From an uncultured Alphaproteobacteria bacterium (GTDB taxonomy: Bacteria; Pseudomonadota; Alphaproteobacteria; RF32; CAG-239): a stretch of 64,000 bases of DNA. The translations under genes were made by a program, and so were the position numbers. The notes beneath the pieces were generated by a model. The model had not been told where the DNA came from. It ran no database searches and was given only the letters and a program-made list of their open reading frames with translations. This document shows positions 24,543 through 52,518 of the stretch, piece by piece (position 1 is the first letter of the stretch; every line of letters begins with the position of its first letter). The stretch is taken from positions 5,972-69,971 of the forward strand of contig CASDOS010000034.1 in NCBI GenBank assembly GCA_949282205.1, read 5' to 3'.

Positions 24543-24557
24543 ACTAACCTCCAAGCA

Positions 24558-29048: not shown

Positions 29049-29057
29049 TGTCTACTC

Positions 29058-31716: not shown

Positions 31717-31823
31717 ATTTTGACCCATTTTTAAATCCAACCTAACTCTACAATAAATATTAAAAAATAATTAATCAAGCATAACACTTTATTTATAAAA
31801 CGTTTTGTTGATTAAATTTTTAG

Positions 31824-33392: not shown

Positions 33393-33511
33393 AGGGTAAA
33401 AAATGAATTAAATCAATATGATATTCAAGGGGGGAGGGGCGTCAAAAGACTTGAAATTTTTTTAAATTTGCTGTAAAGTAAATAATGTATAATGAATTTA
33501 GGAGAACTGAT

Positions 33512-34066: not shown

Positions 34067-34179
34067 GGTAAATAAAATGCATAAAAACAATGGGATAACG
34101 TAAGGGGTGAAGCGTATTTTTTTCTAGCTATTTGTTTGAATTTGTGATATAATAAAAACAATTATAGGGGAGATTGAAA

Positions 34180-34500: not shown

Positions 34501-34511
34501 GAGAGAATGAG

Positions 34512-34944: not shown

Positions 34945-35235
34945 ATGAAGGATATAATATTAAAAGCAGTAGCAAATCCGCCCAAATTATTTTGGGGACC
35001 TGTATTGCCGACAGCGTTGAACGCAGGCTTACAAATACCTTTTATGTTTATGGCAATAGGAATGGCGGATGTGAACCCTCTGGTATTTATTATAAGTATT
35101 GTTACAGGGCATTTAATAGTTGTTGCATTAGGAGCCAAAGATCCGCATCTGTCAGGAATGATACAAGCCTTTGGGCAGACTAATATAGTGCCGCAAAATT
35201 TATACAAAGTGAAAGGGCACAAATTTGAACCTTAA
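34945..35235 (+). CDS. virB3: type IV secretion protein VirB3
   Basis: 96 aa with two TM helices and a KDPHLS motif, directly upstream of virB4 and overlapping it. Confidence 0.8.
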   Translation: MKDIILKAVANPPKLFWGPVLPTALNAGLQIPFMFMAIGMADVNPLVFIISIVTGHLIVVALGAKDPHLSGMIQAFGQTNIVPQNLYKVKGHKFEP

Positions 35236-37678
35236 TTTTGACTTTTATACTTTATTTATGGCGGGTCTGCAAAGTGCGGACGCGATTGTTGCGACTTTAG
35301 GAATTATATCTGCCGCCGCAATAGCAATTTCGTTGGTATCCAAAATAGGCACATGGGTTTTGCCGCAACCAAGTGAATCAAGAGTTGCGGATTTTTTACC
35401 ATTTGATAGTTTATTATCAGATGGTTCAACATTAAGATGCAGCAATGGCACCTATGTGCGAGTATTTAAGGTTGAGGGAGTGGATTTAACATCCGCGCGC
35501 GATGAAACGGTTTTATCCATGTTTGAAGCCAGAAAATCATGGCTTGATAACATGGCGGATTTACAAGTAACATGTCGCGTTATAACAATACGCGACCGCG
35601 TTCCGATGGAAAAAAACAAGGCGGATTTTGGGAACAAATGGCTAAAAATAGTAGATGACACATGGCGAGAGAATTTAAGTCGTGTATACAAGAATGACCA
35701 TTACATTATTTTATCAATAGAAGACAGAAAAGATGCGGTTAAAGATTTGAATTATGCATCACAATCCGTAATGGCGAATTTAAATGATTATGGGATAAAA
35801 GTTTTATATGAGGACGATGAGAGTTCGGCAGAAATGAGTCCGGTATATCCGTTTGTAAGAATTTTAAATCCGATAAGTAAGCCGATGCCCAAAGTAAGAG
35901 GCGCACAAGGTTTTCAACTAAAGGAAATGCTTAGTTCTGACGGTGTCCACTTTACAGGAGAGGAAGGGATAATAAAGTTTTTTTCTGGAGGGAAAGAAAA
36001 ATTTGCATTAACCATGGGAATACGCAATTCTGGTGATTACATGGATGAAGGAATGATATCATCGCTATTGGCAATAGATTGCGAGTTGACGGTTTTACAT
36101 CACATACATCCATTATTTAAGCCCAAAGCCAGAATGATATTAATTCAACAACAGAAAATGGCGGAAGTAACAAGTTTCTCCTCGGATGTGGTCGAACAAT
36201 ATAGTGAAGCACTGGCCGCAATAGAGGATAGTGATGCAGATCACCAGTCATTAGTAGAATATTCAATGAGTTTTATATTAAAGGGAGATTCGATAAAAGA
36301 GATAGAATTCGGAGAAAGTGAAGTTCAAAGAATATGCCGTTTATTTAGTGTGACGCCTGTGCGAGAAAATTGGATAGCGCAAGCGACATTTTTCAATCAA
36401 TTTCCGGGATATGATACATGTGGCAGAACATATTTTTACCTATCAAGAATAGTTTCATTGGCAGTATCATTTGAGCAACTATCGACAGGTTTACCGCGAA
36501 GTGACTGGGGCGAAGGAGCGATTACGGTATTTAGGACAATGAGTGGCTCACCATACAGATTCCAATTTCACATATCTGCAGCAGAATCAGCGGTGGCGCA
36601 CTGTTGCATCGTAGGACCAACCGGACAAGGTAAAACAACATTATTAACATTTTTAGCCGGTCAAGCGATGCGTCACGGCGATTTAAAAGTATACTTTTTC
36701 GACAGACACCGTGGTGCAGAAATATTCACCCACATGGTTCAAGGTGCATACGTTGGTTTTAGCGGAGATAGAAAGAATGTATCTTTAAATCCGTTTGATT
36801 CTCGAGATACAATGAGTAACAGAGCCTTTTTAAGAAATTGGCTAAAAGCGATAACCATGGCAAATGATGCGCTATCAGAAAGAGAAGCTGCACGAGCAGT
36901 GACGACAGCTTTTGATTATTTACGTCCTGAAGAGCGAGTGCTAAAGAATTTATATAAAAGTTGTTTTTCACCGACAGGTACGATGCGTCGAGAATTATAT
37001 AGGTGGGTCAATCCGGATCAATACGGAAATATATTCAATGCGGAACATGATAGCTTAGATTTAAGTGCGAACAGATTTGTTGCATTTGATTTTACGGAAA
37101 TTTTCGATGATGATGTGTTGGCAGCTGCATCAATTAGTTATATCATGCACAGAATACAATCAGAAAGTACCGAAACAGGTACGCCGGCCTTAATTATGAT
37201 AGATGAAACAGCGCCAATGTTAAAGCATGAAATGTTTAGAGATAATTTTATCAAAGGGTTGCAAGAAGGGCGTAAAAAGCGCCAAGCCTATTTATGCGCT
37301 TTTCAACAACCAAATATTGTGGATTCACTAGGTGTAGGCGATGCTGTAAGAGGGCAATGCAAGACGATGATATTTTTCAGAAACACCCAAGCGACACTGG
37401 AATCTTATGCAAAATGGAATTTAACGGATAGTGAATATGATTTTATAAGCGGCAAATCATATAGAGATTGTCCCTATGCAATATTATTAAAGCGTCCCGA
37501 TGCGGGAGAAAACGGCGAAGGCGAGTCAGTAATTTTGGATGTAAACCTAAGTGGATTAGGGCCATATCTAAAATTGTATAACTCGGGCATCAAAAATGTA
37601 TTGTTAGTAGAGAGTTTAGTAAAAGAGTTTGGTGAGGATGGATTCGTCACAAAATATCTCAATGGAGTTGGTACATAA
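35225..37678 (+). CDS. virB4: type IV secretion ATPase VirB4
   Basis: 817 aa with Walker A GPTGQGKTT and Walker B-like ALIMIDETAPM. The start is uncertain: TTG 35225 or ATG 35258. Confidence 0.92.
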   Translation: MNLNFDFYTLFMAGLQSADAIVATLGIISAAAIAISLVSKIGTWVLPQPSESRVADFLPFDSLLSDGSTLRCSNGTYVRVFKVEGVDLTSARDETVLSMFEARKSWLDNMADLQVTCRVITIRDRVPMEKNKADFGNKWLKIVDDTWRENLSRVYKNDHYIILSIEDRKDAVKDLNYASQSVMANLNDYGIKVLYEDDESSAEMSPVYPFVRILNPISKPMPKVRGAQGFQLKEMLSSDGVHFTGEEGIIKFFSGGKEKFALTMGIRNSGDYMDEGMISSLLAIDCELTVLHHIHPLFKPKARMILIQQQKMAEVTSFSSDVVEQYSEALAAIEDSDADHQSLVEYSMSFILKGDSIKEIEFGESEVQRICRLFSVTPVRENWIAQATFFNQFPGYDTCGRTYFYLSRIVSLAVSFEQLSTGLPRSDWGEGAITVFRTMSGSPYRFQFHISAAESAVAHCCIVGPTGQGKTTLLTFLAGQAMRHGDLKVYFFDRHRGAEIFTHMVQGAYVGFSGDRKNVSLNPFDSRDTMSNRAFLRNWLKAITMANDALSEREAARAVTTAFDYLRPEERVLKNLYKSCFSPTGTMRRELYRWVNPDQYGNIFNAEHDSLDLSANRFVAFDFTEIFDDDVLAAASISYIMHRIQSESTETGTPALIMIDETAPMLKHEMFRDNFIKGLQEGRKKRQAYLCAFQQPNIVDSLGVGDAVRGQCKTMIFFRNTQATLESYAKWNLTDSEYDFISGKSYRDCPYAILLKRPDAGENGEGESVILDVNLSGLGPYLKLYNSGIKNVLLVESLVKEFGEDGFVTKYLNGVGT

Positions 37679-37745: not shown

Positions 37746-38897
37746 ATGGTTAGAACAAAAGTTTTGGGTTTGATTATATTAAGTTGTGCCATAATGACAT
37801 GTAAACCCGCAAAAGCGTTTTGGCCTGTAATGGATTTTAGCGAAGTTCCGGTAATTATATCTAAAGTAACGACAGCACTTGATGCATTGGCAGAAAATAA
37901 AGAGCAATTAATGAAGATGAATGGCGCATTAGAAGCTATGGGAAAAAGTATAGATAATATTGCGCAATTTGGTCAAGATTTAAGGGGGCTTACAAAAGAT
38001 ATACAAGATGTCGCCAATAATACTGTTGATGGGGTGAATGAAAATTTGGGAACAGACATTGAAATTCCCGAAAGTGTAAATAACGGATTTACAGTAACAA
38101 ATGAGGCTTTGGGAGATGGATTAGGAGATATAGTTAATCAAACTCAAGATACGTTAAAATTCGGAGAAGATATAATAGATGAGAGCGCATCGGGAATTGA
38201 TACCGCCCAAAAAGGAGCAAATCAGGCCAACGAAGGACTGAAGAAGTTAGAAGAAAAGAATGAAGAAGAAAAAGCCAAGAGGGAAGAAAAACAAAGTCAG
38301 ACGGAAGAACCCGTAGAAGAGGAGGAAGAAGAGGAGGAAATTGCAGAGGATACAAACGACATCATGAAAGAAGAAATTATGGTAAACATTGATGCGTTTG
38401 AAAGTGAAAGTAAACAATTAATAGCACAAATGAACGATGTTTTAGATACGGCAATTAATACGCTGAATAAGTCAGCACAAAATACCCAAAAATTATTAGA
38501 TAATTTGGGAAAAACCGTAAGAGCAACAGAACAACTGGAAGAAAGCGATAAAGAAGCATTGCTCCAGAGAATAGAAAAATTAAAAACACAACATCGAAAT
38601 ATATCGGATAAAACAATAGCTATTGTTGAAAATGCAAAAGAAACTTATAACCAAGAGTATGAGGATAAACTCATAGATGGATTAGTAAATTATAGAAATA
38701 CGGTTGAGATGTATCTCAGAGGAGATATAAGTAAGGAGATTGTAATAAAAAAAGGCGAGGAACTGAAATTAGCCGTTAAGCAAATTGATACAACCATAGA
38801 TAAAGAAACATTAGAAATGCAAAATCAAGAAACAGAAAATATAAAAAAAGAAATAAAAGCAATAGCAGCAGAAATAGGCACAAAGAAAAAAAGGTAG
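37746..38897 (+). CDS. secreted acidic coiled-coil protein with VirB5/TrbJ-like N-terminus (array member 1)
   Basis: Signal peptide ...KPAKA, then FWPVMDFSEVPVIISKV. The protein is highly charged and helical and includes an E8 run. Confidence 0.6.
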   Translation: MVRTKVLGLIILSCAIMTCKPAKAFWPVMDFSEVPVIISKVTTALDALAENKEQLMKMNGALEAMGKSIDNIAQFGQDLRGLTKDIQDVANNTVDGVNENLGTDIEIPESVNNGFTVTNEALGDGLGDIVNQTQDTLKFGEDIIDESASGIDTAQKGANQANEGLKKLEEKNEEEKAKREEKQSQTEEPVEEEEEEEEIAEDTNDIMKEEIMVNIDAFESESKQLIAQMNDVLDTAINTLNKSAQNTQKLLDNLGKTVRATEQLEESDKEALLQRIEKLKTQHRNISDKTIAIVENAKETYNQEYEDKLIDGLVNYRNTVEMYLRGDISKEIVIKKGEELKLAVKQIDTTIDKETLEMQNQETENIKKEIKAIAAEIGTKKKR

Positions 38898-38969
38898 TTT
38901 ATTAACGCATTATCAATAAGTTTAGGATAATTAGTAAATAATGATATAGATTATTAGGGAGGGCGCGAT

Positions 38970-41153
38970 ATGATAACACGGATAATATCCAAAGCAGTAA
39001 AAGGGACAATGATAATAAGTCTTTGTCTGATTTTAAGTGTGCGCTCGGCAAAAGCCTTTGTTTGGCCTGTAATAGACTTAACGGAAATAGTTTCTTTTGT
39101 AAACAGTATTACGACGGGGCTAAACCAAGTAACAAATGCAAAGAGTCAATTAGATAATATAACGAACGTTGTAAAAACGATAGGAGATCAAGTTTCCTCC
39201 GTAAGAAAATATATGGCAGATTTAAAAGGCACAATAAAGAACATCAAGGACAATGTTGAAAGAATAACGACAAATATTAAAGATACGACAAATAATCTTG
39301 ATGACATAGCCTCAGACGTTAATAAGACTTTAGATGATGATTTAAATAAAGAGGAAGAGAATGCTGCAAATACAACAGAAGCGATAGAGGATCAGGTAGA
39401 TTCGGGAGCAACCGAGGAAGAAGTACAAGAAACATTAGATGAAGCAAAAGAAGAATCAGCAGCAAACAAAGAAGAAACAGATAAAGTGCTAGACAAAGCG
39501 GAAGAAACAATAAACGATTCTATGGAAAAAGCACAGACTGCTTTAGATATGTTAATGGATACAATAAATAAAAACGGTGATTTGAATGAAACCGATAAAA
39601 CAAGATTGAATGAAGAGGCAAATAGTATCAAAGAGGATATAGAAGACTTAAAAGAAACCGCCTCAAATGCAATAAGTAGTGTGAAAGAAGAATTTGATGC
39701 GCTTTATAGTGAAGAGATTTCAGCCGCATTTGATACATATAGTCAAGCAATAAGTGATTACTATGCTGGAAAAATAGATAGAGAAGGTCTAAGCAAAGCA
39801 GGCGAAACTTTCAAAACTGATATGTCGGGGTTAGAAGTAGGTATAGATACCAACATAATAGACAATATAGTAAAAAGCGCACAAGACATAGCAGGTAAAA
39901 TAGATGCATTTGAAGAAGATTTAATGAATAGCATAAGCAATTCAAAAGGATATTCAGATGGCAGTGAAGAAGCAAATTGCGAAAGACTAATAACAAGAAA
40001 ATATGCATTTAACTATGTTTCGGATTATGAGCATCAATTATTAAAAGGAGTATACGCCGATGATGCCGATAAAAGTTTTTTGCTATCAAAAGAATTGGCC
40101 TGTGACAATTTAGATGTTTCTAAAATAGAAGAAGATCCGAGTGATTTTAGAGAATGCGTAGTAAAGGCAAAAGCGGAAGTAGAATTATATCCGGATATAT
40201 ATGAAGAATCCCTCTACAAGGACTATCAAAAAGATGGTATATATAAGCATTTGCGTGAAGATTACAGTATAGCAAACATAGTAAGTGTCAGCAAAGCAAA
40301 ACAATTTTCAGCGACATGGGGTTCATTAGAACCGGACAATGATACCAATAAAGGAACATTGTATGTTTTAAGAAAGACATTAAAGGATGTAGATAATACC
40401 CGCGCCGGATATCAATTAATGGGAATGACGGATATAGAATCCCCTAAATTATGGAGTGAAATACGGAGAGTAGATGCTTTGAAACGCGCTAAAGGGGTAA
40501 TTCAAGATTTCGAAACAGGAATAACATTATATCTAGATGGTAGAGATGAAGATTTTGTAGAAGCAACAAATAAAAATTGGGGAACGATGCAAGCTGACGA
40601 CAGAGATAATGATGAGAGTGAAGCGGTAATAGACAAAGCTATTTTTTCGAATGTAATAATGTATAAATGTGGCTTAAGAGCAAAAGACATTTCGGTATCA
40701 GAAAAGAAAAAAGCAGATATGTCAGCGATAGCGGAAAAAGAAAAAAACATAGCAGATTGCTTATATAAATATGCATTAGAAGCCAGTAGAGGCTCAGAGA
40801 TAGAAAAGAAGGTCGGACGTGAAAATCAAAGAAAAGCCTATAATGACTCTGCATTTAACAATTTAACATTAGCGACAATAAATAATTACAAATCGAGTTT
40901 AGATTATGTAGATCCTGAGAAGTTACCAGATCCAAGCAAAGACAAGAACATAGTAAGTTTGCAAGACGGCTTAAAAGAAAGTACGACAACAAAAGATGAC
41001 TACTCTATTGGCGCGCAAATTAATTATTATACAACGCAGCAAATATTAAGTGTTGTTGATGCTGATGCACAAAATCAGCAAACAGAGATTTTAAAAGATA
41101 TAGAAACATTTAACTATAACTACTTTGGTCAACAAGAGGAAGGAGAAGTATAA
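38970..41153 (+). CDS. secreted acidic coiled-coil protein with VirB5/TrbJ-like N-terminus (array member 2)
   Basis: Signal peptide ...RSAKA, then FVWPVIDLTEIVSFVNSI, clearly paralogous to member 1. 727 aa with no internal TM. Confidence 0.6.
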   Translation: MITRIISKAVKGTMIISLCLILSVRSAKAFVWPVIDLTEIVSFVNSITTGLNQVTNAKSQLDNITNVVKTIGDQVSSVRKYMADLKGTIKNIKDNVERITTNIKDTTNNLDDIASDVNKTLDDDLNKEEENAANTTEAIEDQVDSGATEEEVQETLDEAKEESAANKEETDKVLDKAEETINDSMEKAQTALDMLMDTINKNGDLNETDKTRLNEEANSIKEDIEDLKETASNAISSVKEEFDALYSEEISAAFDTYSQAISDYYAGKIDREGLSKAGETFKTDMSGLEVGIDTNIIDNIVKSAQDIAGKIDAFEEDLMNSISNSKGYSDGSEEANCERLITRKYAFNYVSDYEHQLLKGVYADDADKSFLLSKELACDNLDVSKIEEDPSDFRECVVKAKAEVELYPDIYEESLYKDYQKDGIYKHLREDYSIANIVSVSKAKQFSATWGSLEPDNDTNKGTLYVLRKTLKDVDNTRAGYQLMGMTDIESPKLWSEIRRVDALKRAKGVIQDFETGITLYLDGRDEDFVEATNKNWGTMQADDRDNDESEAVIDKAIFSNVIMYKCGLRAKDISVSEKKKADMSAIAEKEKNIADCLYKYALEASRGSEIEKKVGRENQRKAYNDSAFNNLTLATINNYKSSLDYVDPEKLPDPSKDKNIVSLQDGLKESTTTKDDYSIGAQINYYTTQQILSVVDADAQNQQTEILKDIETFNYNYFGQQEEGEV

Positions 41154-41851
41154 TGAAAAAGAAGGTATGGGTAATTCTCTTTCTCTCAATGTTTGTATAT
41201 ACACGAGAAGCGTATGCAATATTTGATATTATGGCAACAGTTCAATCCATTCTGGAGCGTTACAAAGATGTCGAAAACAAGGTTCAGGAATATCAGAAAA
41301 AACTAAGAGATGTTGAAAAAAGAGCAAGGCAAGGGTTTGATTTAGCAAGCAATTGTTATAAAAATCCGACCAAATGTGATGCCAAAGCGATAGAGGCATT
41401 TAGCAAAGATTCTGAAAGCTACGTTAAAAGTTTAAAAGAAATAAAAGTAATGCCCGGCGCAGAAGAATTAAAAGAAGGCGATTTAAAGAAAAAGAGTGAC
41501 AGCAGCTTAGCGCAAACAGTAGAGAACGCGTACATATATAAGAGAGGTCAAGGACAAGATATAGAAAAGACAGCAGAAAATCGTCGATATTTAAATGCGA
41601 TAGTCGCGGATGATACGGCATTATTATTTGCAAAAGGGGTATCTGCGCGTCAAAGTATTTTAGTAGAAGATGGTTCACTTTATCAGTCAGAATTTAAGAA
41701 TGAGAATATGGATGAAATATTGAATGCGCAAAATATAGTAGCGATAGCTACGGAACAAAGATTAAATAGGATACTGGAAATGCGAGCATACATGACGAGT
41801 GCAGGATCGACAGCCGAATTAACACAACAAACCAGAGAAGCGGATGAATAG
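41153..41851 (+). CDS. VirB5/TrbJ-like protein (array member 3, canonical VirB5 size)
   Basis: 232 aa. Signal peptide ...REAYA, then IFDIMATVQSILERY, an all-helical charged body, and a TAATG overlap with member 2. Confidence 0.55.
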   Translation: MKKKVWVILFLSMFVYTREAYAIFDIMATVQSILERYKDVENKVQEYQKKLRDVEKRARQGFDLASNCYKNPTKCDAKAIEAFSKDSESYVKSLKEIKVMPGAEELKEGDLKKKSDSSLAQTVENAYIYKRGQGQDIEKTAENRRYLNAIVADDTALLFAKGVSARQSILVEDGSLYQSEFKNENMDEILNAQNIVAIATEQRLNRILEMRAYMTSAGSTAELTQQTREADE

Positions 41852-43208
41852 GAGAAGAACAATGAAGAAAGCGATATTAATCATCTGCATGACATTAGGT
41901 ATATATATAAGTAGCATACATCCAGCGCAAGCGTTAATAATAGATGCGTCGGCATTAGCAGCTAAGATTAGTGAATGGGTAGGCCGAATAGCTGATGCAA
42001 CAACAAAGATTTCCCAACAAGTATCACAAGTCAAGCAAATGAGTTCACAAGGATTTAACAAAGAAGAATTATACAATATAGCCGAAGAATACGCAACGGA
42101 ATATGGTAAAAACTTACTTCAAACTAAAATGAAAAAGGTTGTAGAAGGAACTAAAAAGAAGAATAAAGACAAGTTGGAAACAGATAAAGAAGCCTATGTA
42201 ACATCCAAAAATTTATACTACGATGAAAAGATAGCGATAATGGATGAAAGTATAAAAGAAACAGAAACGACCAAGACGCAAAAACAAAGTGAATTGATGT
42301 TAAAGAAAGCCGAGGTAAATCAGAAAAAAGACTATTATGAAAGTGTAAGAGGTCAGTTATCAATAGAAGCGCAAGCATATGATGAGTATATAAAAGCCGA
42401 GATGGAATATCAGGAATTAGAAACGGCATGCAAGGAATTAGATGAATTATTGCTGTCATTGGAAGCGCAGAAGAGTAAATTAGAAGAAGAAAAGGCGAAA
42501 GTAGGTACATCGGACGATCCGGAATATGTTTTATACGAAAAACGACTGGAAGAGATGGAACAAGAGATTGAAGAAGCCGATGGAGAAGGTGGAGCGGAAG
42601 ACATAGTAAATAAATCAGGCGGCAATGATGCTGAATGGGATGATGAAAACATTGTAAACAGTTTTTCGCCAACGGAAAAGGATTATACGGACTTTATAAA
42701 AAGATATTTTTACAATCCCGAAGATTTGTCAGCAAGCGGAAGCAATGCGCGAGTTGAAAATCAAACTAAAATAGATGCGGCAACACGAGAGCGTCGTTTC
42801 TTACTAGTAAACAGTGCTGCGCATTTATTACAAGTTTCCGCATCGTTAAGACGAGAAATTCCTGTTCGCAGTGAAATAATAGATGAGATGTTTCAAAATA
42901 CGCCTAAAGCGCCCGGAGAATTAGAAGCGATATCTTCATATTCGGCAACAAGAATAGAAAGTATGAAAGCTCTATTAATGTACGCAAAATTACAAAGTGC
43001 GAGATTACAATATATGGCAGCAAAGCAATTGCTAAAAACCAATGTTTCAAAAGTTCCGAACGGAGAATATTTGAAATTTGATTTAGAAAAATACATTCTG
43101 ACAAAAGAAGATGTTGATAATGCGATAGAAGAAGCAAATAAAACCAGTAAAAATATAGATGATACATTTAAAGTAAATGTGGGAGACTACCAATGGTTAA
43201 AGTATTAA
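41844..43208 (+). CDS. secreted coiled-coil protein with VirB5/TrbJ-like N-terminus (array member 4)
   Basis: Signal peptide ...HPAQA, then LIIDASALAAKISEWV. 454 aa, charged and helical. It overlaps member 3 by 8 nt. Confidence 0.55.
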   Translation: MNRRRTMKKAILIICMTLGIYISSIHPAQALIIDASALAAKISEWVGRIADATTKISQQVSQVKQMSSQGFNKEELYNIAEEYATEYGKNLLQTKMKKVVEGTKKKNKDKLETDKEAYVTSKNLYYDEKIAIMDESIKETETTKTQKQSELMLKKAEVNQKKDYYESVRGQLSIEAQAYDEYIKAEMEYQELETACKELDELLLSLEAQKSKLEEEKAKVGTSDDPEYVLYEKRLEEMEQEIEEADGEGGAEDIVNKSGGNDAEWDDENIVNSFSPTEKDYTDFIKRYFYNPEDLSASGSNARVENQTKIDAATRERRFLLVNSAAHLLQVSASLRREIPVRSEIIDEMFQNTPKAPGELEAISSYSATRIESMKALLMYAKLQSARLQYMAAKQLLKTNVSKVPNGEYLKFDLEKYILTKEDVDNAIEEANKTSKNIDDTFKVNVGDYQWLKY

Positions 43209-46200
43209 GAATGCTACAAAATCTGATCTTAGGTGTACTTATCTTAGGTTCAGGAATTCAAGAGGCCAAAGCATTTTTCTTATTGCCACCGATGCCATGG
43301 GATATAGAAGTGGATGTACCGGCCAATGCCAATAAGATAGTGTCCAATGCAAAAACACTATATCGTCAAGCTCAAACCATAAAGTCTGAATTAAACAGTC
43401 AGAAATTGGAAATTCTGAAAAAAGGACAAGCCTTTTTAAATACAAAATTTAAAAAACAAGAAGAAGGTGGAAAAAACAAAGCCCCGGGGAGAGGGGAGCT
43501 TCGCAATAGTAGTCTGCTGAAAATAACGGAACACGGATTGAATGAAGAGGAAAACTTCAACGCATTTCATACATTATTTTTGGTATATCCGCCCAAGAGT
43601 TCATATCCTGACAACTATCCGGCAGCCAAAGTTGCTTATATGCGTAAAGCTGATGAGTACAAGCAAGATGTGATTATGGAAACATACTTAACCGGTCGAG
43701 TAACAGAAAATTACCTAGCCTTAGTAGAAAAAACAATTGAGCGCTTAGATCACTGCCAAAAAGGCTTATACACCGAGGCGGAGATGGCTGAACATTGTGT
43801 GTTTTTCGGTTTACAAATGGCCTATGTGGAGCCGAAGAAAGAAAACCTAGACAATGAAGGAAGTCCGGAAGAGAGTACAAATCCCGGACAATATGGAGAA
43901 GTTCTGAATGCTTACATTGTAACAACCGTTTACGATAGGCTAATGCGTATCGTAGAGGATTTAACAGGTACGGAGGCTCAATTCATATCAGCGATACAAA
44001 TTGATAGTGTAGATCCGCTAGAGCCGGAGGAACAGAGTTCTGCGGAGGAATATATTGAAAAAGGATATAAGTTTGCATATAACGAGAGCAAGACATACGC
44101 TTTAGCGACAGGACAGATGTTGGGCGGAAATTATATTCGTAGTCAAGAGTGTGCAAACGGTGGAAAAAATTGTCCTGACGAGAACGAAGATGTAGCCGAG
44201 ATTAAAAATACGGATGACACGGCGATATTAGGTAAATTACTACCGATTGATGAGCAATTAAGAAATGCAATGAATTTGCACAATTTAAAATCAAAATTAG
44301 ACGAATATAAGACTCAATACAGAAAATACCTTAAATCAAAAGAAATACATGAAAGAATGATGAAGGTACTAAAGAAGAGTGAGGAAAGTGTAGTTAGTTT
44401 CTTAGATAGATACAGTGGCGGCAAGGGAGAAACGATTTGGTATAACGGAAATAAGCCGGCAAAAGTAAACGAGCACGAAAATCGCGGAGGTCTATCGAAA
44501 GAAGTAATTTTAGAATACCAAGAAGACACGACAGACAAGTTAATAGGTACGGATACTGGTGAGTGTGACGGATTTTATGAATCATGTCCGGATGGATATG
44601 AATTAGATAGTGGCAATCCATGCGTATATACAGATAATAATGGAAACAGCGTAACGAGCGCAACAATGTTTGCTTGTGTATTAAAAACCGTAACATCAGA
44701 CACCGATCCGGAGGGAGATCCGAAAGTTTCTTTTGAACCAAAATTAGAAGAAAACTACAGTATAGCGGGAGCGAACAATCAACGCGACTACAATGATACG
44801 GACTACTTTGAAGAAGGTAACCAAGCAGAAATCGTAGAAGTAGATAATCGTGTCAAAGCCGAGAAGAATTGGCGTATCGGCTATGATAAAATTATGAAAT
44901 TAACGGAAGATGGCACATTGAAATTTGAGCCGTGGAATGACCAGAAAAACCTACAAACAGAATATTTGCGCAACAAATATCGCAATATGAGAATGATAGT
45001 CAAAACAGCGGATCAAGGTCTATTATCGCAACGAGTAGCCAAAGTATTAGCTAATGAGAGCAAAAATATCGGCCCGATAGAAGAAGTATTACCAGCGGTA
45101 TCTGTCTGCAAATTAACGACAGACGCAACGGAAGATGCATTTAATCAAGACTGCTCAGACTATAGTGGTTCGTGCTCACAAGGAGGAGACACCGCATCGT
45201 GCTCTGGTACTAAGGTCCAACAATGCTATACATATGATTCGGAAGGAAATATAAGTTACTATTATGTGACATTATGGTGTAAAGTAGATGGTGATAACAA
45301 CACCGGAAAGATTAATGGTTACAAAGAAGTCGGATGCAGCAAGAGTACTGTCGGTATAAGTTACAGTCAGACGATTAAGAGTTTATCGGGAGGCTGCGAT
45401 TTCACAAAAGCCGGAAGTGATTATCACGCCGTCGAGGATACAAGTGAAACATGCCCGAGCAAATGGGATTTAACCACAAAATTCTTAGTACGCAGATACA
45501 TACCGGGTGTAACGGCAAGTTGGATAAATGGTGGCAGTTATGAATCCCAATGTCAGATGGATTTAGGAACAGAAACATTGGATAAAGAAAACACGCACTT
45601 ATATACAAATACCAACACAGCCGGAAGGGTTGTTGCCTCAGATCATTTCCAAGAGCTTATAGAAATGCGTAAAGAGCTTGAGAAAAAATTAAAAGCGATG
45701 GTTGATGAATATGAGAAGAGCATGCAAAGTCTAAAAGCAACGCTACGCGCAACAATTGCAAGCAGAAGTGAGTATGGTCAAAAACTAAGTGACAAGACGG
45801 ATGAAAAGAATGAGCTTGTGCAACAGCGCCAACGTTCATTAAAACGAGCAACGGCAATTATAGCGCAAATAGAAGAACTAAATACACGCGTCGAAGAATT
45901 GCAAGCACGTCTGGATGAAAGAAAGCCAACTCCCAAAAGTTTACAAAAGGAGATTGAATCACTAACAATTGGTGCCGGTGAAGATATGGATAAATTTGAA
46001 AATCCGACCTTAGCGCAGCGGATAGGACAGATTCCAGCCTTAAAAGAAGAGTTAGCTTTTATCTGTTACAAAGCACCGACAAACGACGATGATTATAAGG
46101 TATGCAAAGAATATAGTGGTACAGCTAATAAAGAAGAACCGTATGATGAAAATACGCGAGAAGAAGATAAATTCGAAAACGTAGCCGATTTACATACAAA

Positions 46201-48628
46201 AATTACTGCTAAAAACACGGAAATTGACAGTATATCCTCAATGATGCAAGTTCTTCAAGACAGGATAGATTCGTTAAATGAGCAAATAGAACAAAAGGCT
46301 CTCGCATTTGCGGATAATTATGTAAAAACATCAGAAGAAGGACAAAGAGCCCTTGAAGCTGCCAACCGAATATTTGAGAATAAATTGGAAATTAAAGAAG
46401 ATGGAGTTTCTGAACCGGACAGAATGGTCAGCAATAGCAGGGAATGGTGCAAAGGATATGGTCCTTTGGGAGTTATATGTCGAGATGGATACAGCCATGA
46501 ATATAAATATGACAATCTGAGTTGGACAATAGCCCGAGTAATGTATGGCAATGGCTCGGAGAATAGCGAAAGTGCCGTTGCCGGAGAATTACCGGAATTA
46601 GTCAAAAAAGGTATTGAAGACAGATGGTTTGCTGATGGTTCATGGTTAAGCTACGCGGCAAATAAACTGAGTAACGAAGGAAAAGTAGTCAGAAAATTTG
46701 TTGTAGAAGGAGGCTGCTTGGCACCATATGGTGTAGCAGATGGGCTATATACACCAACAACGCTGGCAAAAGCCATAAAAGAGAAATCCGTAGAAGAAGC
46801 GGTTGCTGATTTATCCATCGGAAGTGAAGCCTACATCAACAAAGCAGACAAGATCATTAAAGATGAAATAGACGCTGCGGTAGAAGAGATTACGGATGTG
46901 ATGGAATTATGGGGCGTAACCGGAGAAGAAGGCACAGAAGCCAATCCAGCCATTTTTGAGCATAGCAATTATGCTGACGATGGAGCGACAGAAGGGACGC
47001 AATCAGTAACGAAAACACACTATGAGTTGTTGGAGGACTTAAAGAAAGCCGAAAATCAAAGCATACTGGATGCAGCCAGCATTGAGTTAAAAGAAATCTT
47101 TGGTATGCCGGATTCTATTACGACGGACGTTGATTACTTTGCAGCTTTACCAGCAAGAGGATACTTTGCAGGCAAAGATACCTATGTACAATTTGGTCGT
47201 GATAATGAAAAATTTGTCTTTGACGAGAACGATGGTCGAGACTATCGAGCTCCGAGAAAACCATTAATGAACCTTGCGCCGATAAGAGAAGTATTTTACT
47301 TTAGCGCTCTTGATTATGATGACGTACCGCAAAAAGACGGAAAACCATCATTATCGGCATTAGTTGATGTAAAATACAAAAATGTAGACATAGCGAGTGC
47401 GAAAGAAGTAGAATATCTGCCGGAAGCATGGAGATATTTATTGGCGACACCAAATTTAAGAAAGGGACCGGAAAAATATCAACATACATTTGTTGAGCGT
47501 GACTATGGTTTGGATAAGTTGAAGAAATATCTAAACAATGAAAACATAGATGGAGCCAAAGAATGGCATTACCGCGCTATTATCGGAAGAGGCGGAGTAT
47601 ATCCGTGTAACTTAGGCGGCCGCGTCATAGATGTCGGAGGAGGCGATGGTGTTGGAGATATCCAATTTAAGCAAAGAAGCAATTTACCTTTCGATATATT
47701 GAAAGCGGAGGAGTGTCAGGAAGTTGAATCTTACAAAGGAGGCGTTCGGCAGTTATTGGCCGACCATGATACCAAAGATGACAGCAAGTCAAAAGCGCTT
47801 CAAGGAAGCCTGGGAGGTACAACAGAGCCGATGTACTTGAAGTATAGTGAATTAGGTCAATTCTTGAACGGAGACTTACAGTATCGTCCGATATTAAAGA
47901 ACATTTACGATTATTTACTAAGTGAAGATAATCAAGAAAATAACATAGAACGTCAACGTGCGGAAACAGCAGTGTTCAAACGTAATGTTATAGGTTCGTT
48001 TTTAGAGTCGGTAAATGCCGAGCATACGGCACTGAAGTCGCTGGAAAAGAATGAACAAGAAGCAAAAGATTCTCTGAAAAACTTGTGTATGCAACTTCAT
48101 AATTTCGATACAAGTGTCAATGGCGAGAGTTGTGAAGACAAAGAAGACAGCGAATGCATGGAAAGTATTGCGGAAGATTGTGCTGAATTCATAATGAAGA
48201 ACGGAGGTCTTGCAAAAGATTCGTTTGATGATAAATATGATGTGGACTGTGCACAATCGGGCTCAGGATCATATTATGAAACAATATTCTGCAAACTGAA
48301 TGATTTGAAGGATGAAGCAGTAAAGAAAGCAGAAGAAGGATACAGTGATGGAGAAAATGAATATGAGGGCTACAACGAAGTAAAAGGTATGGAAGGAAGC
48401 GAAAAGATAGAAGAACGTAAGAAGTTGATTGAGAACTATCTTGAAATCTTTAAGAAAACGGATGCCGATGAATTATCGTATGTACAGCCTGATGCGACAC
48501 CGGAAGAAGTAGCGGATGCCGTAGAAGAGGCCAAAGCAAACCGGGAAGCATCTCTTGATGCAACAGAAGAAGGTCTGACATCAATGGATAACCAAAGCCA
48601 AGCCGTACCATACGCGCCTGTATATTAA
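43193..48628 (+). CDS. giant (1811 aa) secreted protein with VirB5-like N-terminus, Cys-rich modules and coiled coils (array member 5)
   Basis: RBS GGGAGA. Signal peptide ...QEAKA, then FFLLPPMPWDIEVDV. Cys-rich clusters lie around nt 44550-45480, with a long coiled coil around 45650-46300. There is no TM apart from the signal peptide. Confidence 0.7.
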   Translation: MVKVLRMLQNLILGVLILGSGIQEAKAFFLLPPMPWDIEVDVPANANKIVSNAKTLYRQAQTIKSELNSQKLEILKKGQAFLNTKFKKQEEGGKNKAPGRGELRNSSLLKITEHGLNEEENFNAFHTLFLVYPPKSSYPDNYPAAKVAYMRKADEYKQDVIMETYLTGRVTENYLALVEKTIERLDHCQKGLYTEAEMAEHCVFFGLQMAYVEPKKENLDNEGSPEESTNPGQYGEVLNAYIVTTVYDRLMRIVEDLTGTEAQFISAIQIDSVDPLEPEEQSSAEEYIEKGYKFAYNESKTYALATGQMLGGNYIRSQECANGGKNCPDENEDVAEIKNTDDTAILGKLLPIDEQLRNAMNLHNLKSKLDEYKTQYRKYLKSKEIHERMMKVLKKSEESVVSFLDRYSGGKGETIWYNGNKPAKVNEHENRGGLSKEVILEYQEDTTDKLIGTDTGECDGFYESCPDGYELDSGNPCVYTDNNGNSVTSATMFACVLKTVTSDTDPEGDPKVSFEPKLEENYSIAGANNQRDYNDTDYFEEGNQAEIVEVDNRVKAEKNWRIGYDKIMKLTEDGTLKFEPWNDQKNLQTEYLRNKYRNMRMIVKTADQGLLSQRVAKVLANESKNIGPIEEVLPAVSVCKLTTDATEDAFNQDCSDYSGSCSQGGDTASCSGTKVQQCYTYDSEGNISYYYVTLWCKVDGDNNTGKINGYKEVGCSKSTVGISYSQTIKSLSGGCDFTKAGSDYHAVEDTSETCPSKWDLTTKFLVRRYIPGVTASWINGGSYESQCQMDLGTETLDKENTHLYTNTNTAGRVVASDHFQELIEMRKELEKKLKAMVDEYEKSMQSLKATLRATIASRSEYGQKLSDKTDEKNELVQQRQRSLKRATAIIAQIEELNTRVEELQARLDERKPTPKSLQKEIESLTIGAGEDMDKFENPTLAQRIGQIPALKEELAFICYKAPTNDDDYKVCKEYSGTANKEEPYDENTREEDKFENVADLHTKITAKNTEIDSISSMMQVLQDRIDSLNEQIEQKALAFADNYVKTSEEGQRALEAANRIFENKLEIKEDGVSEPDRMVSNSREWCKGYGPLGVICRDGYSHEYKYDNLSWTIARVMYGNGSENSESAVAGELPELVKKGIEDRWFADGSWLSYAANKLSNEGKVVRKFVVEGGCLAPYGVADGLYTPTTLAKAIKEKSVEEAVADLSIGSEAYINKADKIIKDEIDAAVEEITDVMELWGVTGEEGTEANPAIFEHSNYADDGATEGTQSVTKTHYELLEDLKKAENQSILDAASIELKEIFGMPDSITTDVDYFAALPARGYFAGKDTYVQFGRDNEKFVFDENDGRDYRAPRKPLMNLAPIREVFYFSALDYDDVPQKDGKPSLSALVDVKYKNVDIASAKEVEYLPEAWRYLLATPNLRKGPEKYQHTFVERDYGLDKLKKYLNNENIDGAKEWHYRAIIGRGGVYPCNLGGRVIDVGGGDGVGDIQFKQRSNLPFDILKAEECQEVESYKGGVRQLLADHDTKDDSKSKALQGSLGGTTEPMYLKYSELGQFLNGDLQYRPILKNIYDYLLSEDNQENNIERQRAETAVFKRNVIGSFLESVNAEHTALKSLEKNEQEAKDSLKNLCMQLHNFDTSVNGESCEDKEDSECMESIAEDCAEFIMKNGGLAKDSFDDKYDVDCAQSGSGSYYETIFCKLNDLKDEAVKKAEEGYSDGENEYEGYNEVKGMEGSEKIEERKKLIENYLEIFKKTDADELSYVQPDATPEEVADAVEEAKANREASLDATEEGLTSMDNQSQAVPYAPVY

Positions 48629-48646: not shown

Positions 48647-49405
48647 ATGGTCAATTTAATAAATCAAAAAATATTGCGTTTAACCGATAAAGCTCGGACG
48701 AAAGACGCGCCAGCTTTTATAACAGAAGATGTCATAGAAGTAAAAAGAGCAAAATTGATTTATTACAAATGGATAAGCAGGCTAATGGCCATATTAGCGA
48801 CAATATCTTTGCTATATGGGGTATGCACGACGCTTTCAATTTTAAAGTTAGCTCCTGAAATCGTAATAGATCCACAGTTATTTGTAGAATTATCAGATTC
48901 TCAATCAATGGTAAAACGCGAAAGAGTCGATCGCTGGATGGAATCTCGAGAAAAGATAATGATTAATTTTATGAAACAATATGTAGAGCTTCGCAACACA
49001 TACATAAAAGATGAAAAAGAAATGAACAATCGCTGGTTATGGGGTGGTTTAGTTTCATATTTATCAACATATCCTGTTTATAAGGAGTTTGAGAAAGTTT
49101 TTCCGAAATTAAAAGAAGAGATGGTAGAGAAAGAAAGTAGCCGCTCGGTAGAAATACTTTCGGTAGAGAGAACCGGAGGGGAGAACAGTAATACATGGAA
49201 GATAGAATTTAAGACATATGATTTTACCTTCAAGCAAAATAGGCTAAGCCGTCGAGCCAGTATTACCCCAACAATAGAAGAAAAATATTGGACAGCGAAC
49301 ATTCGCGGCTATGTAGATCCCAACAGGAGAACGGCATATCGTCGTCTATTAAATCCATTAGGATTTGTAATATACAGTTATTTTCAAAGTGAAATAGAGA
49401 TTTAA
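48647..49405 (+). CDS. virB8: type IV secretion protein VirB8, paralog 1
   Basis: 252 aa with a cytoplasmic N-terminus, a single TM (LMAILATISLLYGVCTTLSIL), then an NTF2-like region beginning NFMKQYVELRNTY. Confidence 0.8.
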   Translation: MVNLINQKILRLTDKARTKDAPAFITEDVIEVKRAKLIYYKWISRLMAILATISLLYGVCTTLSILKLAPEIVIDPQLFVELSDSQSMVKRERVDRWMESREKIMINFMKQYVELRNTYIKDEKEMNNRWLWGGLVSYLSTYPVYKEFEKVFPKLKEEMVEKESSRSVEILSVERTGGENSNTWKIEFKTYDFTFKQNRLSRRASITPTIEEKYWTANIRGYVDPNRRTAYRRLLNPLGFVIYSYFQSEIEI

Positions 49406-49547
49406 AAAAATTTTAAGTATTAAGATGCTACAATTTGCATAAACGATTTAGCCTGTTGATAAGTCGAGGCAATTTATTTTCTCGTTAGACTTTTAAAAAT
49501 AAAAGTTTTAGAAATAAATAAACAGGAAATTATTTAGAGGAGTAATC

Positions 49548-49736
49548 ATGTATAAAGCATTAGTTATAGGTTTTGGCATATTAATATTAGCTGCTTGTAA
49601 TTTAGTGGGAAGTTATTATGAGCCGGAACCCGTAGGTATAGGTAAAGATGTCTACGAATTAAAATTATCACCGTGTGCATGCATAGAAGTTGAATTACCC
49701 AAGACATTACCTGATTGGTTTAAGGCAATGAGTTAA
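49548..49736 (+). CDS. VirB7-like small lipoprotein
   Basis: 62 aa with RBS GAGGAG and lipobox ILAAC. It sits between two virB8 genes, upstream of virB9. Confidence 0.6.
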   Translation: MYKALVIGFGILILAACNLVGSYYEPEPVGIGKDVYELKLSPCACIEVELPKTLPDWFKAMS

Positions 49737-49756
49737 ATAAGTTAGGGTGAGATGCG

Positions 49757-50515
49757 ATGGTTGAGCAGATATCCTCAGAAAACACTAAAAAACTTTTATT
49801 GGAAGGGCAAGGAGCAGAAAAGCCCCATCCCAGGGTAGTACGCCCACAAAAAAGAGGTAATGCGGATATTATAGTAGAAAATGCAACAGAAAAAAGGTAT
49901 TTGTGGACAGCTCGAGCGTTTGCTATAATTTTTGCAGTAAGTTTATGTTGCAATTTAATTTTAACGTATGTGGTAATTGCAATTATGCCATTGTATCGGA
50001 TAGAACCGTATTTATTTAGTTTTGCAGAAAAAAAAGACCAAATATATACAATACATCCTGTGAAAAATATTTATGAGTACAAATATTTAACAGAGATTTT
50101 TGTGCGGGAATATGTATTGTTGCGAAACACATTTGTAAACAATATTGAAGAGATGGAGCAGCGTTGGGGGGCAGGTGGAACGTTACAAGAAATGTCCTCC
50201 CCGGGAGTATATAATCAGTTTCGAGAAAATTTTGCAGATAAAGCAATTGATTTAATAAGAAACCACAATATAACCAGAAACATAAAGATATCCTCAGTAA
50301 CGGAAGTAGGCGGGAAGAATGGAGAGATGTGGTGGCAAGTAGAATTCAGGGTAGAAGATATGATGCCGGAATATGAAACACCACGATTAAGTGTGTGGTT
50401 GGCGTCAATAAAAATACAATATAGAGCCAAAAGGGTAACTTTTGGAGAGAGATTAAAAAATCCTTTAGGGTTTACGGTACTCGATTATAAACAGGTTGAG
50501 CGAAAAACAAATTAA
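49757..50515 (+). CDS. virB8: type IV secretion protein VirB8, paralog 2
   Basis: 252 aa with the same architecture as paralog 1 (TM AFAIIFAVSLCCNLILTYVVIAI; FVREYVLLRNTF). Confidence 0.8.
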   Translation: MVEQISSENTKKLLLEGQGAEKPHPRVVRPQKRGNADIIVENATEKRYLWTARAFAIIFAVSLCCNLILTYVVIAIMPLYRIEPYLFSFAEKKDQIYTIHPVKNIYEYKYLTEIFVREYVLLRNTFVNNIEEMEQRWGAGGTLQEMSSPGVYNQFRENFADKAIDLIRNHNITRNIKISSVTEVGGKNGEMWWQVEFRVEDMMPEYETPRLSVWLASIKIQYRAKRVTFGERLKNPLGFTVLDYKQVERKTN

Positions 50516-50532
50516 ATAGGTGTAGGAATTTG

Positions 50533-52518
50533 ATGATGAAAGTAGCAAAGATTTTATCTATAGTAATAATATCAATAGGAATAATAGTTCCCACCGTATA
50601 CGCGCAGGTAACAAAAGATAATTTGGATCAAAATGCTGACCAGAGCCAAGGGAATTACGCGGCAACCAATTTAAATTATTTAGGCGGAGGCGGATCATTA
50701 GGTATGATGCAGAGTGCATGGAAAGATCCGTTGCAACACATGGGAGAAGGACAAACGCGTCCAGGCTATACAAAGTACTATTGGACACCTGAATTAGTTT
50801 TACCTGTAAGAGTAAGAGAAGGTATGTACACATTAATAAATTTTCCGAATTGGGAAGTTATAGAGAATGTGTATATCGGCGATGGACAATCATTCAATGC
50901 GGAAATACAAGGTCCGTCAAGTTTAATGGTATATCCGGATTCTTCACAATTTGTTGGAGTAGATACCAATATGATTGTTTTTGGTCGGTCTGGGAATAAA
51001 TACGTTTTTTATGTACAAAGTGAAACTGTCAATACCGATAGGATAACCAATGCGATAATAGATATAGAGGTTGTTAAAAGACGTCAAAATGCAACAGGTT
51101 CTGCCGTAATAGGAAGTAACAATGGTGGAGGACATATAAATGCGAACGCGTATGGGCAAAATGGTAGCAGCGCGGATGCAACTTTTACAAGGGATTTGCA
51201 AAAAGAGGACTGGATTGAAAAAATTCCGGTAGATCCAACAAAGTTTCGATTTGATATAGAAGTATATGTTCCTAATCCAGATGATATAGTAATAGCACCG
51301 GAGCGTGTATGGCGCGACAATATTTTCACTTATATAGATTTAGGGGACAAGGCCTTAACAGCAAATCAAAGACCGATAGTAACACTAATTGTAGAGAGGT
51401 CGGAAACCCCGGTAGGTTTTAGAACGGCGGGACCGAATAATCGCCTGATAATAGTGGAAGGTATGGGCGATATGGTTCTTCGCAGTGGTAAGAGAATAGT
51501 CTGCTTAAAATTAAGACGTTCAGATTCGGATGGCTTAGAAAATACAGTTTATGCTAAAACGAATGAATGGGATTTGCAGGCTAAGAATTATCAAAGAGCA
51601 ACAGAAGGAAAAGAAAGTAATACAGAATCATATGAGAATGTATACACAGGTGATGTTCAAAAAGAAAATAATCAAAAGAAATCATTCTTTGGAATCAGCT
51701 CGTTCTTTGGTGGCTCACAAAATACGGATAGTTCAACAACAGATACCAATGGCCTAAGCTACGAAGATATGATAAGCGGTAAAAAGAAAGCGTCCGGTCA
51801 ACAATCCGAGAAAGCCTCAAATGTGGAAAACACAACACCGCAAGATAAGATTAAGCCGCAAACAAATATAGAAAGCAAAACCGAAGAAACAGCTTTGTTA
51901 AATTCAATACCTAAGGCAAAAACATATGTTGCATCTCCAACTCCGCAAGAAAGTGGAATAGAATTAACAGGGCAGTATGATACAAAAGCAGATGGAGCCG
52001 AATTAGTGACGCCACAATATGAGAATAAGGCGGATATATCAGTAAGTTACCAGAAAGATGTTCAGCAAAATACAACAATTCCGGAAAGTGTTAAGCAAAA
52101 TGCTTCAACTCAAGTCGGCGTCTCAAGCAACAATTCAAGTCCTGTCCTGATTACGCCTAAAGATGAAAGTCTAGAAAAACAAAATTCATTAGTTAATGCT
52201 GAAACAGAGGCATTACTCAAAGAGTTTAGAGATGGAAGAGCCTTTTCCAATGCTGATGAGAGCAACATTTCCATAGAATTGGGAACGGATAAAGATGTAA
52301 ACAATTTGGAAAAATTATGGAATGACATATCCAAAAATTACTCAGCGACGTTAGGTAAATATCAGCCATTTTATTCAGTAGACACACCAGCAGACGGACA
52401 GGGAAAAGAAGTGTTTCATCTTCGTGTAGGTCCTGTAAAATCATTAGATGAAGGCGATAATATATGCAGCCAATTAGGTCGTAACGGAATATTTTGCAGT
52501 GTGGTCAGAATACAATGA
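50533..52518 (+). CDS. virB9: VirB9/TrbG-family outer-membrane core protein fused to a C-terminal SPOR domain
   Basis: Signal peptide ...VYAQV. The VirB9-like core runs from about 50700 to 51540 (YTKYYWTPELVLPVRVREGMYTLINFP...MIVFGRSGNKYVFYV...RIVCLKLRR). A ~240-aa Q/S/T/N/E-rich linker follows, and the last ~85 aa are SPOR-like (FHLRVGPVKSLDEGDNICSQLGRNGIFCSVVR). Confidence 0.8.
   Translation: MMKVAKILSIVIISIGIIVPTVYAQVTKDNLDQNADQSQGNYAATNLNYLGGGGSLGMMQSAWKDPLQHMGEGQTRPGYTKYYWTPELVLPVRVREGMYTLINFPNWEVIENVYIGDGQSFNAEIQGPSSLMVYPDSSQFVGVDTNMIVFGRSGNKYVFYVQSETVNTDRITNAIIDIEVVKRRQNATGSAVIGSNNGGGHINANAYGQNGSSADATFTRDLQKEDWIEKIPVDPTKFRFDIEVYVPNPDDIVIAPERVWRDNIFTYIDLGDKALTANQRPIVTLIVERSETPVGFRTAGPNNRLIIVEGMGDMVLRSGKRIVCLKLRRSDSDGLENTVYAKTNEWDLQAKNYQRATEGKESNTESYENVYTGDVQKENNQKKSFFGISSFFGGSQNTDSSTTDTNGLSYEDMISGKKKASGQQSEKASNVENTTPQDKIKPQTNIESKTEETALLNSIPKAKTYVASPTPQESGIELTGQYDTKADGAELVTPQYENKADISVSYQKDVQQNTTIPESVKQNASTQVGVSSNNSSPVLITPKDESLEKQNSLVNAETEALLKEFRDGRAFSNADESNISIELGTDKDVNNLEKLWNDISKNYSATLGKYQPFYSVDTPADGQGKEVFHLRVGPVKSLDEGDNICSQLGRNGIFCSVVRIQ

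Follow-up and report, generated by a model that had tools for sequence, protein, structure and literature searches.

The window analysed here is a stretch of 64,000 nucleotides from an uncultured gut alphaproteobacterium, probably of GTDB order RF32. On its + strand, from 33.5 kb, it carries the operon of a VirB-type type IV secretion system (T4SS) in the order three VirB2/TrbC pilins, a VirB3-like protein, VirB4, five secreted proteins (A383, B727, C232, D454 and E1811, or A to E for short), VirB8, a 62-aa lipoprotein, a second VirB8, VirB9-SPOR, a 2100-aa repeat protein, VirB10 and VirB11. The set of five is the subject of this paper. An earlier note on this DNA had described them as tightly coupled, same-strand open reading frames (ORFs) of 383, 727, 232, 454 and 1811 aa between virB4 and virB8, and both their coordinates and the Pfam matches of the flanking genes agree with this. 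The spacings from virB4 through A-B-C-D-E to virB8 are +67, +72, -1, -8, -16 and +18 nt. Statements about the scaffold refer to ENA ERZ16268063 scaffold_146 (79,394 bp), on which the window position is the record position minus 5924.

All five genes lie on the + strand. A383 (37746-38897, 383 aa) begins with a VirB5-type N-terminal module (mature residues 25-66, approximately nt 37818-37943), which is followed by an acidic helical body. B727 (38970-41153, 727 aa) has a module of the same type at residues 30-72 (approximately nt 39057-39185), which is followed by a bundle of helices (residues ~100-325) and, at ~355-720, by a helical C-terminal domain in which four Cys are invariant. C232 (41153-41851, 232 aa) is helical and VirB5-sized, its N-terminal helix being followed by QGF...C-x2-NP-x2-C, and D454 (41844-43208, 454 aa), also helical, has QGF after its own N-terminal helix. 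E1811 (43193-48628, 1811 aa) contains 31 Cys and a coiled coil that is confined to one central stretch, and to call it a coiled-coil protein undersells it. VirB5 is typically ~220-250 aa and lies directly 3' of virB4; only C232 fits this size and only A383 fits this position.

Each protein has a basic n-region before an N-terminal hydrophobic segment that ends in AxA (AKA, AKA, AYA, AQA and AKA, respectively), and the mature N-termini are FWPVMD, FVWPVID, IFD, LIID and FFLLPPMPWDIEVD. The earlier note was thus right about the cleavable signal peptides ending in A and the mature N-termini. The maximum Kyte-Doolittle 19-residue mean past residue 40 is 0.27-1.04 in A to E and 2.3-2.5 in two VirB6 controls (TrwI of R388 and the VirB6 of a Paracaedimonas plasmid). 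Because no value exceeds 1.04, far below the controls, the five have no internal transmembrane (TM) helices, again as had been claimed. The bodies had been called acidic and heptad-rich. In composition they are 16-21% D+E and 12-15.5% K+R; C232 is balanced rather than acidic, and the coiled coil of E1811 is only central.

The note had also taken the five for a single diversified family, and here pairwise comparison led to a different result. By BLASTP, phmmer and hhalign, A383 and B727 are the only detectable paralogues (23% identity, E ~1e-20, hhalign 99%), and no likeness was detected among the protein bodies apart from this pair. An N-terminal kinship across all five (hhalign 77-95%) was rejected because it disappears without the signal peptides, except between A and B. 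The alignment of C232 with D454 without signal peptides is weak, ungapped and in register (18%).

For comparison with VirB5 we used an alignment of 41 proteins, all carrying PF07996 and seeded with TrwJ of R388, in hhalign with the signal peptides removed on both sides. The A383 family matches it with a probability of 90% (E 1.6e-6, VirB5 residues 25-64), the B727 family with 86.5% (E 4.6e-6) and a joint A+B profile with 92.5% (E 4.9e-7), while reversed-profile controls give E 0.05-0.3. In both families the match covers PVxD and helix 1, which make up the first ~40 residues after the cleavage site. The VirB5 family is so divergent that its archetype, the Agrobacterium protein, reaches only 19.9% (E 1e-3) against the TrwJ-type profile, and for this reason the scores of A and B are respectable. 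D454 scores 17% (E 1.4e-3), in register; against the VirB5s of related plasmids it reaches 78-86%, signal peptides included. C232 gives 81% with its signal peptide and 0.6% without it. When a VirB5 hidden Markov model was run over the 316 ORFs of the window, B727 ranked first, D454 second (E 1.7e-4) and C232 third, and the A+B N-terminal profile including the signal peptide found TrwJ/VirB5 (PDB 7O3V) as the best match in the whole PDB (E 1.8e-5).

In all five families the N-terminal Asp falls on D29 of VirB5 when the best alignment is taken. Counted on the sequences, the residue 24 after this Asp is Gln in A, B, D and TrwJ, and there is a Gly at +36 in A to D and at +37 in TrwJ. The pattern hydrophobic-hydrophobic-D-x23-[QK]-x11/12-G is found at the start of mature A, B, C and D, but in only 2 of the 116 other window ORFs that are 70 aa or longer. 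Within each family (~20 orthologues each) the signal peptide, its cleavage site and the N-terminal motif are kept, and for this reason the N-terminal anatomy is beyond chance. A and B, and probably D, open after cleavage with a VirB5 signature, consisting of hydrophobic-Pro-Val-x-Asp, a ~35-residue helix, Gln 24 residues after the Asp and then a Gly turn. C and E, whose homology to VirB5 is only putative, probably use the same entry route, judging from the cleavage site, Asp and helix architecture that they share with the others. The VirB5/TrbJ-like N-termini claimed in the earlier note are therefore partly supported on sequence grounds: profiles back A and B, D has moderate support, and C and E match only as a motif.

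Overall we favour, at somewhat better than even, the view that A to E are accessory parts of a chromosomal VirB-type T4SS, that they are exported by Sec and that they were derived by expansion and divergence of VirB5. A number of results weigh against this. Pfam and NCBIfam scans of A to E gave no VirB5/TrbJ model at E<=1, only low-scoring coiled-coil noise. C232 and E1811 fail all profile tests against VirB5 once the signal peptide is removed, leaving the likeness of the motif. The mature-only A+B profile still finds TrwJ in the PDB in register, but only at E 0.036 amid coiled-coil noise. The likeness is limited to ~40 residues, since bodies past helix 1 compared with the VirB5 body, which is a three-helix bundle carrying a globular appendage, give a probability of at most 7.8%. 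In AlphaFold2 (AF2) models of B727 and C232 the N-terminal module is of low confidence, and Foldseek searches of the PDB with these models gave nothing below E 0.01, only weak ClyA-like and designed-bundle matches. Finally, no VirB6 is seen here, while VirB5 of R388 needs VirB6 for docking.

The failure of the curated models carries its own caveat. The scanned VirB5-position proteins of Microvirga and Paracaedimonas plasmids also lack a PF07996 match, so the curated VirB5 models are narrow. The AF2 models, in which B727 and C232 are nearly all helical, are of moderate to low confidence (predicted local distance difference test 72.9 for B727, with its N-terminal module <50, and only 59.7 for C232) and retrieve none of TraC, TrwJ and CagL. 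As modelled, the structures neither support nor refute a VirB5 fold for B727 and C232. In other searches, single-sequence PDB queries with the five gave no match, full-length family profiles against the PDB are dominated by coiled-coil and haemagglutinin noise, an enlarged E1811 family has no significant match to VirB5, and the VirB5 C-terminal segment DPKAIAELQARI..EQ..IQNE has no match in A to E. A C232 profile run against 1.84 billion proteins found unannotated relatives only, without a Pfam family and with no bridge to PF07996.

In another reading, A to E would be lineage-specific secreted coiled-coil proteins that have no mechanistic tie to VirB5, with an N-terminal likeness that is convergent or that of a generic post-cleavage helix, and with canonical virB5 and virB6 genes elsewhere. 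The failure of the curated models, the mere 40 residues of similarity and the many spurious profile matches that coiled-coil sequences yield would all fit. However, the A/B profile match survives removal of the signal peptide, clearly beats the reversed controls and lies, for A and B alike, right at the start of the mature protein. Moreover, the genes stand at the place of virB5, and the related plasmids lead in graded steps from GIPVID VirB5 to A to E. We consider coincidence very unlikely.

Consistent with the earlier note, there is no VirB6 at the locus. The only ORFs with at least three hydrophobic segments in the T4SS operon are the VirB2 pilins, so there is no candidate for VirB6, a polytopic protein with at least four hydrophobic helices. 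In 727 kb of DNA that included the window, both flanks on the scaffold and the related loci, tblastn with TrwI and the Paracaedimonas VirB6 found the controls and nothing else, and A to E have no Pfam TrbL/VirB6 (PF04610) match. To say that VirB6 has been replaced, as the earlier note did, goes further than these negatives, which cover the locus and the scaffold. The 79-kb scaffold also has no relaxase, VirD4 or VirB1; housekeeping genes follow virB11 and there is no VirD4 upstream. In R388 a VirB5 pentamer sits atop a VirB6 pentamer and is carried outward at the tip of the growing VirB2 pilus, with VirB6 required for the docking of VirB5 (PMC9259494), and VirB6 is considered a conserved component of every T4SS (PMC12857230).

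The closest conjugative plasmids were informative in this respect. The nearest plasmid VirB4s (33-36% identity) are those of Microvirga VF16, Sphingosinicella BN140058 and Erythrobacter aureus YH-07, in which a MobA/MobL relaxase and VirD4 are present. Their operons run VirB2-VirB3-VirB4-VirB5-X-VirB7 lipoprotein-VirB8...VirD4. The VirB5 is of ordinary size (251-273 aa) with a canonical GIPVID/QVPVLD, and X, a protein of 420-490 aa in the VirB6 slot, is secreted and lacks a TM helix. Profile comparison shows X to be a paralogue of the VirB5 next to it (96.4%, E 1.4e-9 over 179 columns), and against PF07996 proteins X scores 92.9%. The regions concerned are 14418-17117 of locus L033 (Erythrobacter aureus), 11538-13683 of L034 (Sphingosinicella) and 16378-19245 of L027 (the Microvirga plasmid); the annotated start of X is too short in two of the three plasmids. 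In the operons of Erythrobacter and Sphingosinicella the pilin is the only polytopic ORF. A 228-aa Microvirga protein with three TM helices was considered as a cryptic VirB6 of the clade and rejected, as it has homologues in unrelated Pseudomonas and Ralstonia plasmids and none in the Erythrobacter or Sphingosinicella plasmids. The more distant Paracaedimonas plasmid (VirB4 30% identical) retains a six-TM TrbL/VirB6 after VirB5.

The motif GIG...LK.SPCACI is found in the 62-aa lipoprotein of the window and in the pre-virB8 lipoproteins of the Microvirga and Erythrobacter plasmids, and this common VirB7 motif ties the window and plasmid T4SSs together. The window and plasmid operons share the T4SS clade, the gene order, the PCACI VirB7 and a TM-less secreted VirB5 paralogue in the VirB6 slot, and the proteins of the related plasmids grade from a canonical GIPVID VirB5 into those of the window. 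They differ in that the plasmids hold two such proteins, not five, together with a relaxase and VirD4, and in that the bodies are not detectably similar to those of A to E. Because the closest plasmids already carry VirB5 and a TM-less paralogue with no operon VirB6, the window arrangement looks like a two-to-five expansion of a 'VirB5 plus VirB5-derived soluble protein' operon.

The five-gene set is strictly maintained in the relatives of this genome. When one genome was scanned for each GTDB species, 21 loci were found, all from metagenome-assembled genomes (MAGs) of uncultured gut Alphaproteobacteria (human, mouse, buffalo and deer). Among the loci retrieved, 17 (16 distinct) cover the whole interval, and every one of them has exactly A-B-C-D-E in this order. 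B727 has 34 full-length homologues. A deeper lineage (GCA_964408115.1, GC 41%; locus L036), which was reached through a sensitive C232-profile search, also has five genes between virB4 and virB8, with sizes of 230, 439, 246, 406 and 1345 aa. Its A' (230 aa) is scarcely more than the N-terminal module, and its B' (439 aa, L036 8649-9968) has no VirB5-like N-terminus and only a weak likeness to the C-terminal domain of B727. Going by these sequences, B727 may be a fusion, or A' and B' may be the products of a split. In one buffalo-gut MAG only, there is a 601-aa ORF with nine hydrophobic segments between virB2 paralogues (L018 4318-6123, - strand). The proteins themselves diverge fast: A to E are 27-45% identical where VirB4 is 83-90% identical, and A383, the fastest-evolving of the five, is 57% identical where VirB4 is 98% identical. 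Literature searches on the T4SS of this gut lineage found nothing relevant.

This effector-like divergence, the signal peptides on all five and the lack of VirD4 after virB11 or upstream on the scaffold, which fits a system without a nearby coupling protein, could also mean that A to E are Sec-dependent cargo that mimics the VirB5 N-terminus, is loaded on a growing pilus-like stalk and is pushed out, as has been proposed for pertussis toxin and the Ptl T4SS; a Ptl/VirB5-analogue idea has been published (PMC12857230). Yet the strictly kept number and order of five within the operon look like stoichiometric machine parts, paralogue X holds the same place in related conjugative plasmids that do carry VirD4 and a relaxase, and VirD4 may simply be encoded elsewhere. 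We find the cargo explanation doubtful.

If A to E are instead VirB5-derived subunits, they most likely belong to the stalk or the pilus tip and carry display domains that have diverged, and the tip or stalk of this T4SS is probably unusually elaborate. The N-terminal module would dock A, B and D, in the manner of VirB5, into the five-fold stalk that nucleates the VirB2 pilus, and the docked proteins would thereby reach the pilus tip or the cell surface. The bodies, which evolve fast and run to 1800 aa with coiled coils and Cys-containing domains, would then be displayed for contact with the surfaces of a host or of prey. For a 'surface adhesin' role, as the earlier note had proposed, the single line of evidence is the fast divergence, which hints at it.

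Exactly five genes at every locus, the deeper lineage included, together with the pentameric VirB5 and VirB6 layers of the R388 stalk (PMC9259494), raise the further thought of a stalk that is independent of VirB6, in which A to E would form a 1:1:1:1:1 hetero-pentamer and at least one of the large ones (D and E) would take the role of the VirB6 periplasmic platform. Anchoring would fall to other subunits, such as VirB3, VirB4 with its N-terminal extension or the two VirB8 copies. The operon of the window has no polytopic protein, nor do those of the Erythrobacter and Sphingosinicella plasmids, and the hydrophobic extension of VirB4 would suit such an arrangement. On the other hand, VirB6 is held to be universal among T4SSs (PMC12857230), C and E have no profile support for a VirB5 module, B' of the deeper lineage is without the motif altogether, and the plasmid relatives carry two such proteins, not five. 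We regard both this arrangement and its proposed anchoring as unlikely. Similarly unlikely is its extension to a whole clade without polytopic VirB6, building its five-fold stalk or tip from VirB5-derived soluble proteins, with a hetero-pentamer bearing different display domains in the gut bacteria and two paralogues in the plasmids.

In terms of known systems, A to E share with VirB5/TrwJ/TraC (PF07996; R388 stalk, PDB 7O3V) the Sec signal peptide; A383 also has the position directly behind virB4. In A and B there is hydrophobic-P-V-x-D plus helix 1 with a significant profile match, in A, B and D the Gln at +24, and in A to D the Gly turn at +36/37. They differ in size (232-1811 aa versus ~220-250), in number (five versus one) and in lacking an adjacent VirB6, the VirB5 body, the C-terminal DPKAIAELQARI...IQNE motif and a Pfam match.

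With its three paralogous VirB2s, its giant repeat proteins and no VirD4 close by, the window T4SS resembles the adhesive Trw system of Bartonella (PMC2610397). In Trw, which has amplified trwL and trwJ-trwI-trwH, no coupling protein and a role in erythrocyte adhesion, there are likewise several VirB2 and VirB5-like genes per locus, no VirD4 beside the system (here, none on the 79-kb scaffold) and fast-evolving, presumed surface-exposed parts. The Trw copies, however, are recent, similar, variable-number tandem duplicates of virB5-virB6-virB7 units, whereas the window five are ancient, unlike one another and constant in both number and order, with VirB6 missing rather than co-amplified and a single VirB7-like gene.

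The rvh system of Rickettsiales, in which virB3-virB4 are followed by four or five large virB6 paralogues and which has no VirB5, is also an alphaproteobacterial chromosomal T4SS with duplicated VirB8, multiple VirB2 and a run of five large genes after virB4. In rvh, however, these genes encode polytopic, extended VirB6 proteins, whereas the window five are TM-less with VirB5-type N-termini; in this respect the two systems are opposites. CagL, CagI and CagH of the Helicobacter Cag system and TraH of the F plasmid provide a precedent for VirB5-like function without recognizable overall similarity to VirB5, and in Cag several such proteins are co-encoded. Unlike the window, the Cag and F systems keep a VirB6 homologue (CagW and TraG), and no sequence relationship of their proteins to A to E was found. 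CagL/CagI/CagH-type sets have a C-terminal motif common to the co-encoded proteins; the C-termini of the window five, compared by eye only, differ (...GTKKKR, ...QQEEGEV, ...TREADE, ...YQWLKY and ...YAPVY).

VirB6 and VirB5 make up the central stalk that nucleates the T4SS pilus, and here a whole clade has secreted, probably VirB5-derived proteins in the operon slot of VirB6. The clade spans plasmids with a relaxase and VirD4 and the chromosomal systems of widespread gut alphaproteobacteria (humans, mice and ruminants). If VirB6 is encoded elsewhere, the elaborate tip would be a ready model for tip diversification in target recognition by T4SSs; if it is true that a stalk forms without polytopic VirB6, the current assembly model would change. 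The correspondence between a fixed set of five different subunits and a five-fold symmetric stalk is directly testable, and the N-terminal signature could guide the search for cryptic VirB5 analogues where annotation gives a system no VirB5.

The remaining T4SS genes, all on the + strand, were assigned as follows. The three VirB2/TrbC pilin paralogues are at 33485-33862, 34174-34500 and 34509-34868 (Pfam TrbC, E 1.6e-10, 1.9e-9 and 1.4e-4, respectively). The VirB3-like membrane protein (34945-35235, 96 aa) overlaps virB4 from upstream and has two hydrophobic segments; it has no match in the Pfam scan and is 78-99% conserved in relatives. The VirB4 ATPase (35225-37678; Pfam CagE_TrbE_VirB, E 1.5e-10) has an N-terminal hydrophobic extension at residues ~10-45 (nt 35225-35360, hydropathy 2.45), which is also present on VirB4 of Erythrobacter, Microvirga and the deeper lineage GCA_964408115.1. 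The extension could be a membrane anchor in a system without VirB6.

Downstream of E1811, the two VirB8 copies (48647-49405, Pfam VirB8 E 4.6e-12; and 49757-50515, E 1.1e-17) flank the VirB7-like lipoprotein (49548-49736, 62 aa, lipobox LAAC), the duplication as a whole covering 48647-50515. VirB9 (50530-52518; Pfam CagX, E 2.3e-14) has a C-terminal SPOR domain (E 5e-4), a domain of the peptidoglycan-binding type; there is no VirB1-type transglycosylase at the locus. It is followed by the 2100-aa protein (52494-58796), which is N-terminally anchored and has repeats in common with the N-terminal region of VirB10 (phmmer E 6e-131), and by VirB10 itself (58768-63138; Pfam TrbI, E 3.8e-28) with a ~1000-aa N-terminal extension of beta-flower repeats (Bflower_2, E 1.9e-52). 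Beta-flower repeats on both VirB10 and the protein encoded between virB9 and virB10 are a highly unusual decoration of a T4SS core. VirB11 (63215-64000) continues past the end of the window; the whole gene as called on the scaffold encodes 326 aa and matches Pfam T2SSE.

The T4SS is followed on its 3' side by engB, yidC, rnpA, rpmH, recF, dnaN and dnaA, and there are housekeeping genes 5' of the window. These flanks place the T4SS on the chromosome, near the replication origin; dnaA, dnaN and recF (L001 15432-24252, downstream of the window) are ~8-10 kb from its end, next to the chromosomal origin. The GC content is ~35%. Over the T4SS region (window 32-64 kb) there is a strong positive GC skew, which is consistent with a position adjoining the origin.

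On the other side, and divergent to the T4SS, there is a cluster resembling type IVb pilus and type II secretion systems (21780-33281, mostly - strand). Its parts include a lipoprotein secretin (29058-30686), a TcpQ-like protein (30652-31740), an ATPase (24558-26222), a PilC-like platform protein (23421-24554) and a PilT-like ATPase (21780-22727). The pilus cluster is next to the T4SS in all the related lineages examined (for example, L003 1-3265, L004 1-3820 and L036 1-3133), and in GCA_964408115.1 it is again a divergent secretin/TcpQ cluster that adjoins the locus. The two systems may cooperate. Near the start of the window (112-3103) there is a tandem pair of paralogous, polytopic glycosyltransferases of the PMT_2 (ArnT-like) type.

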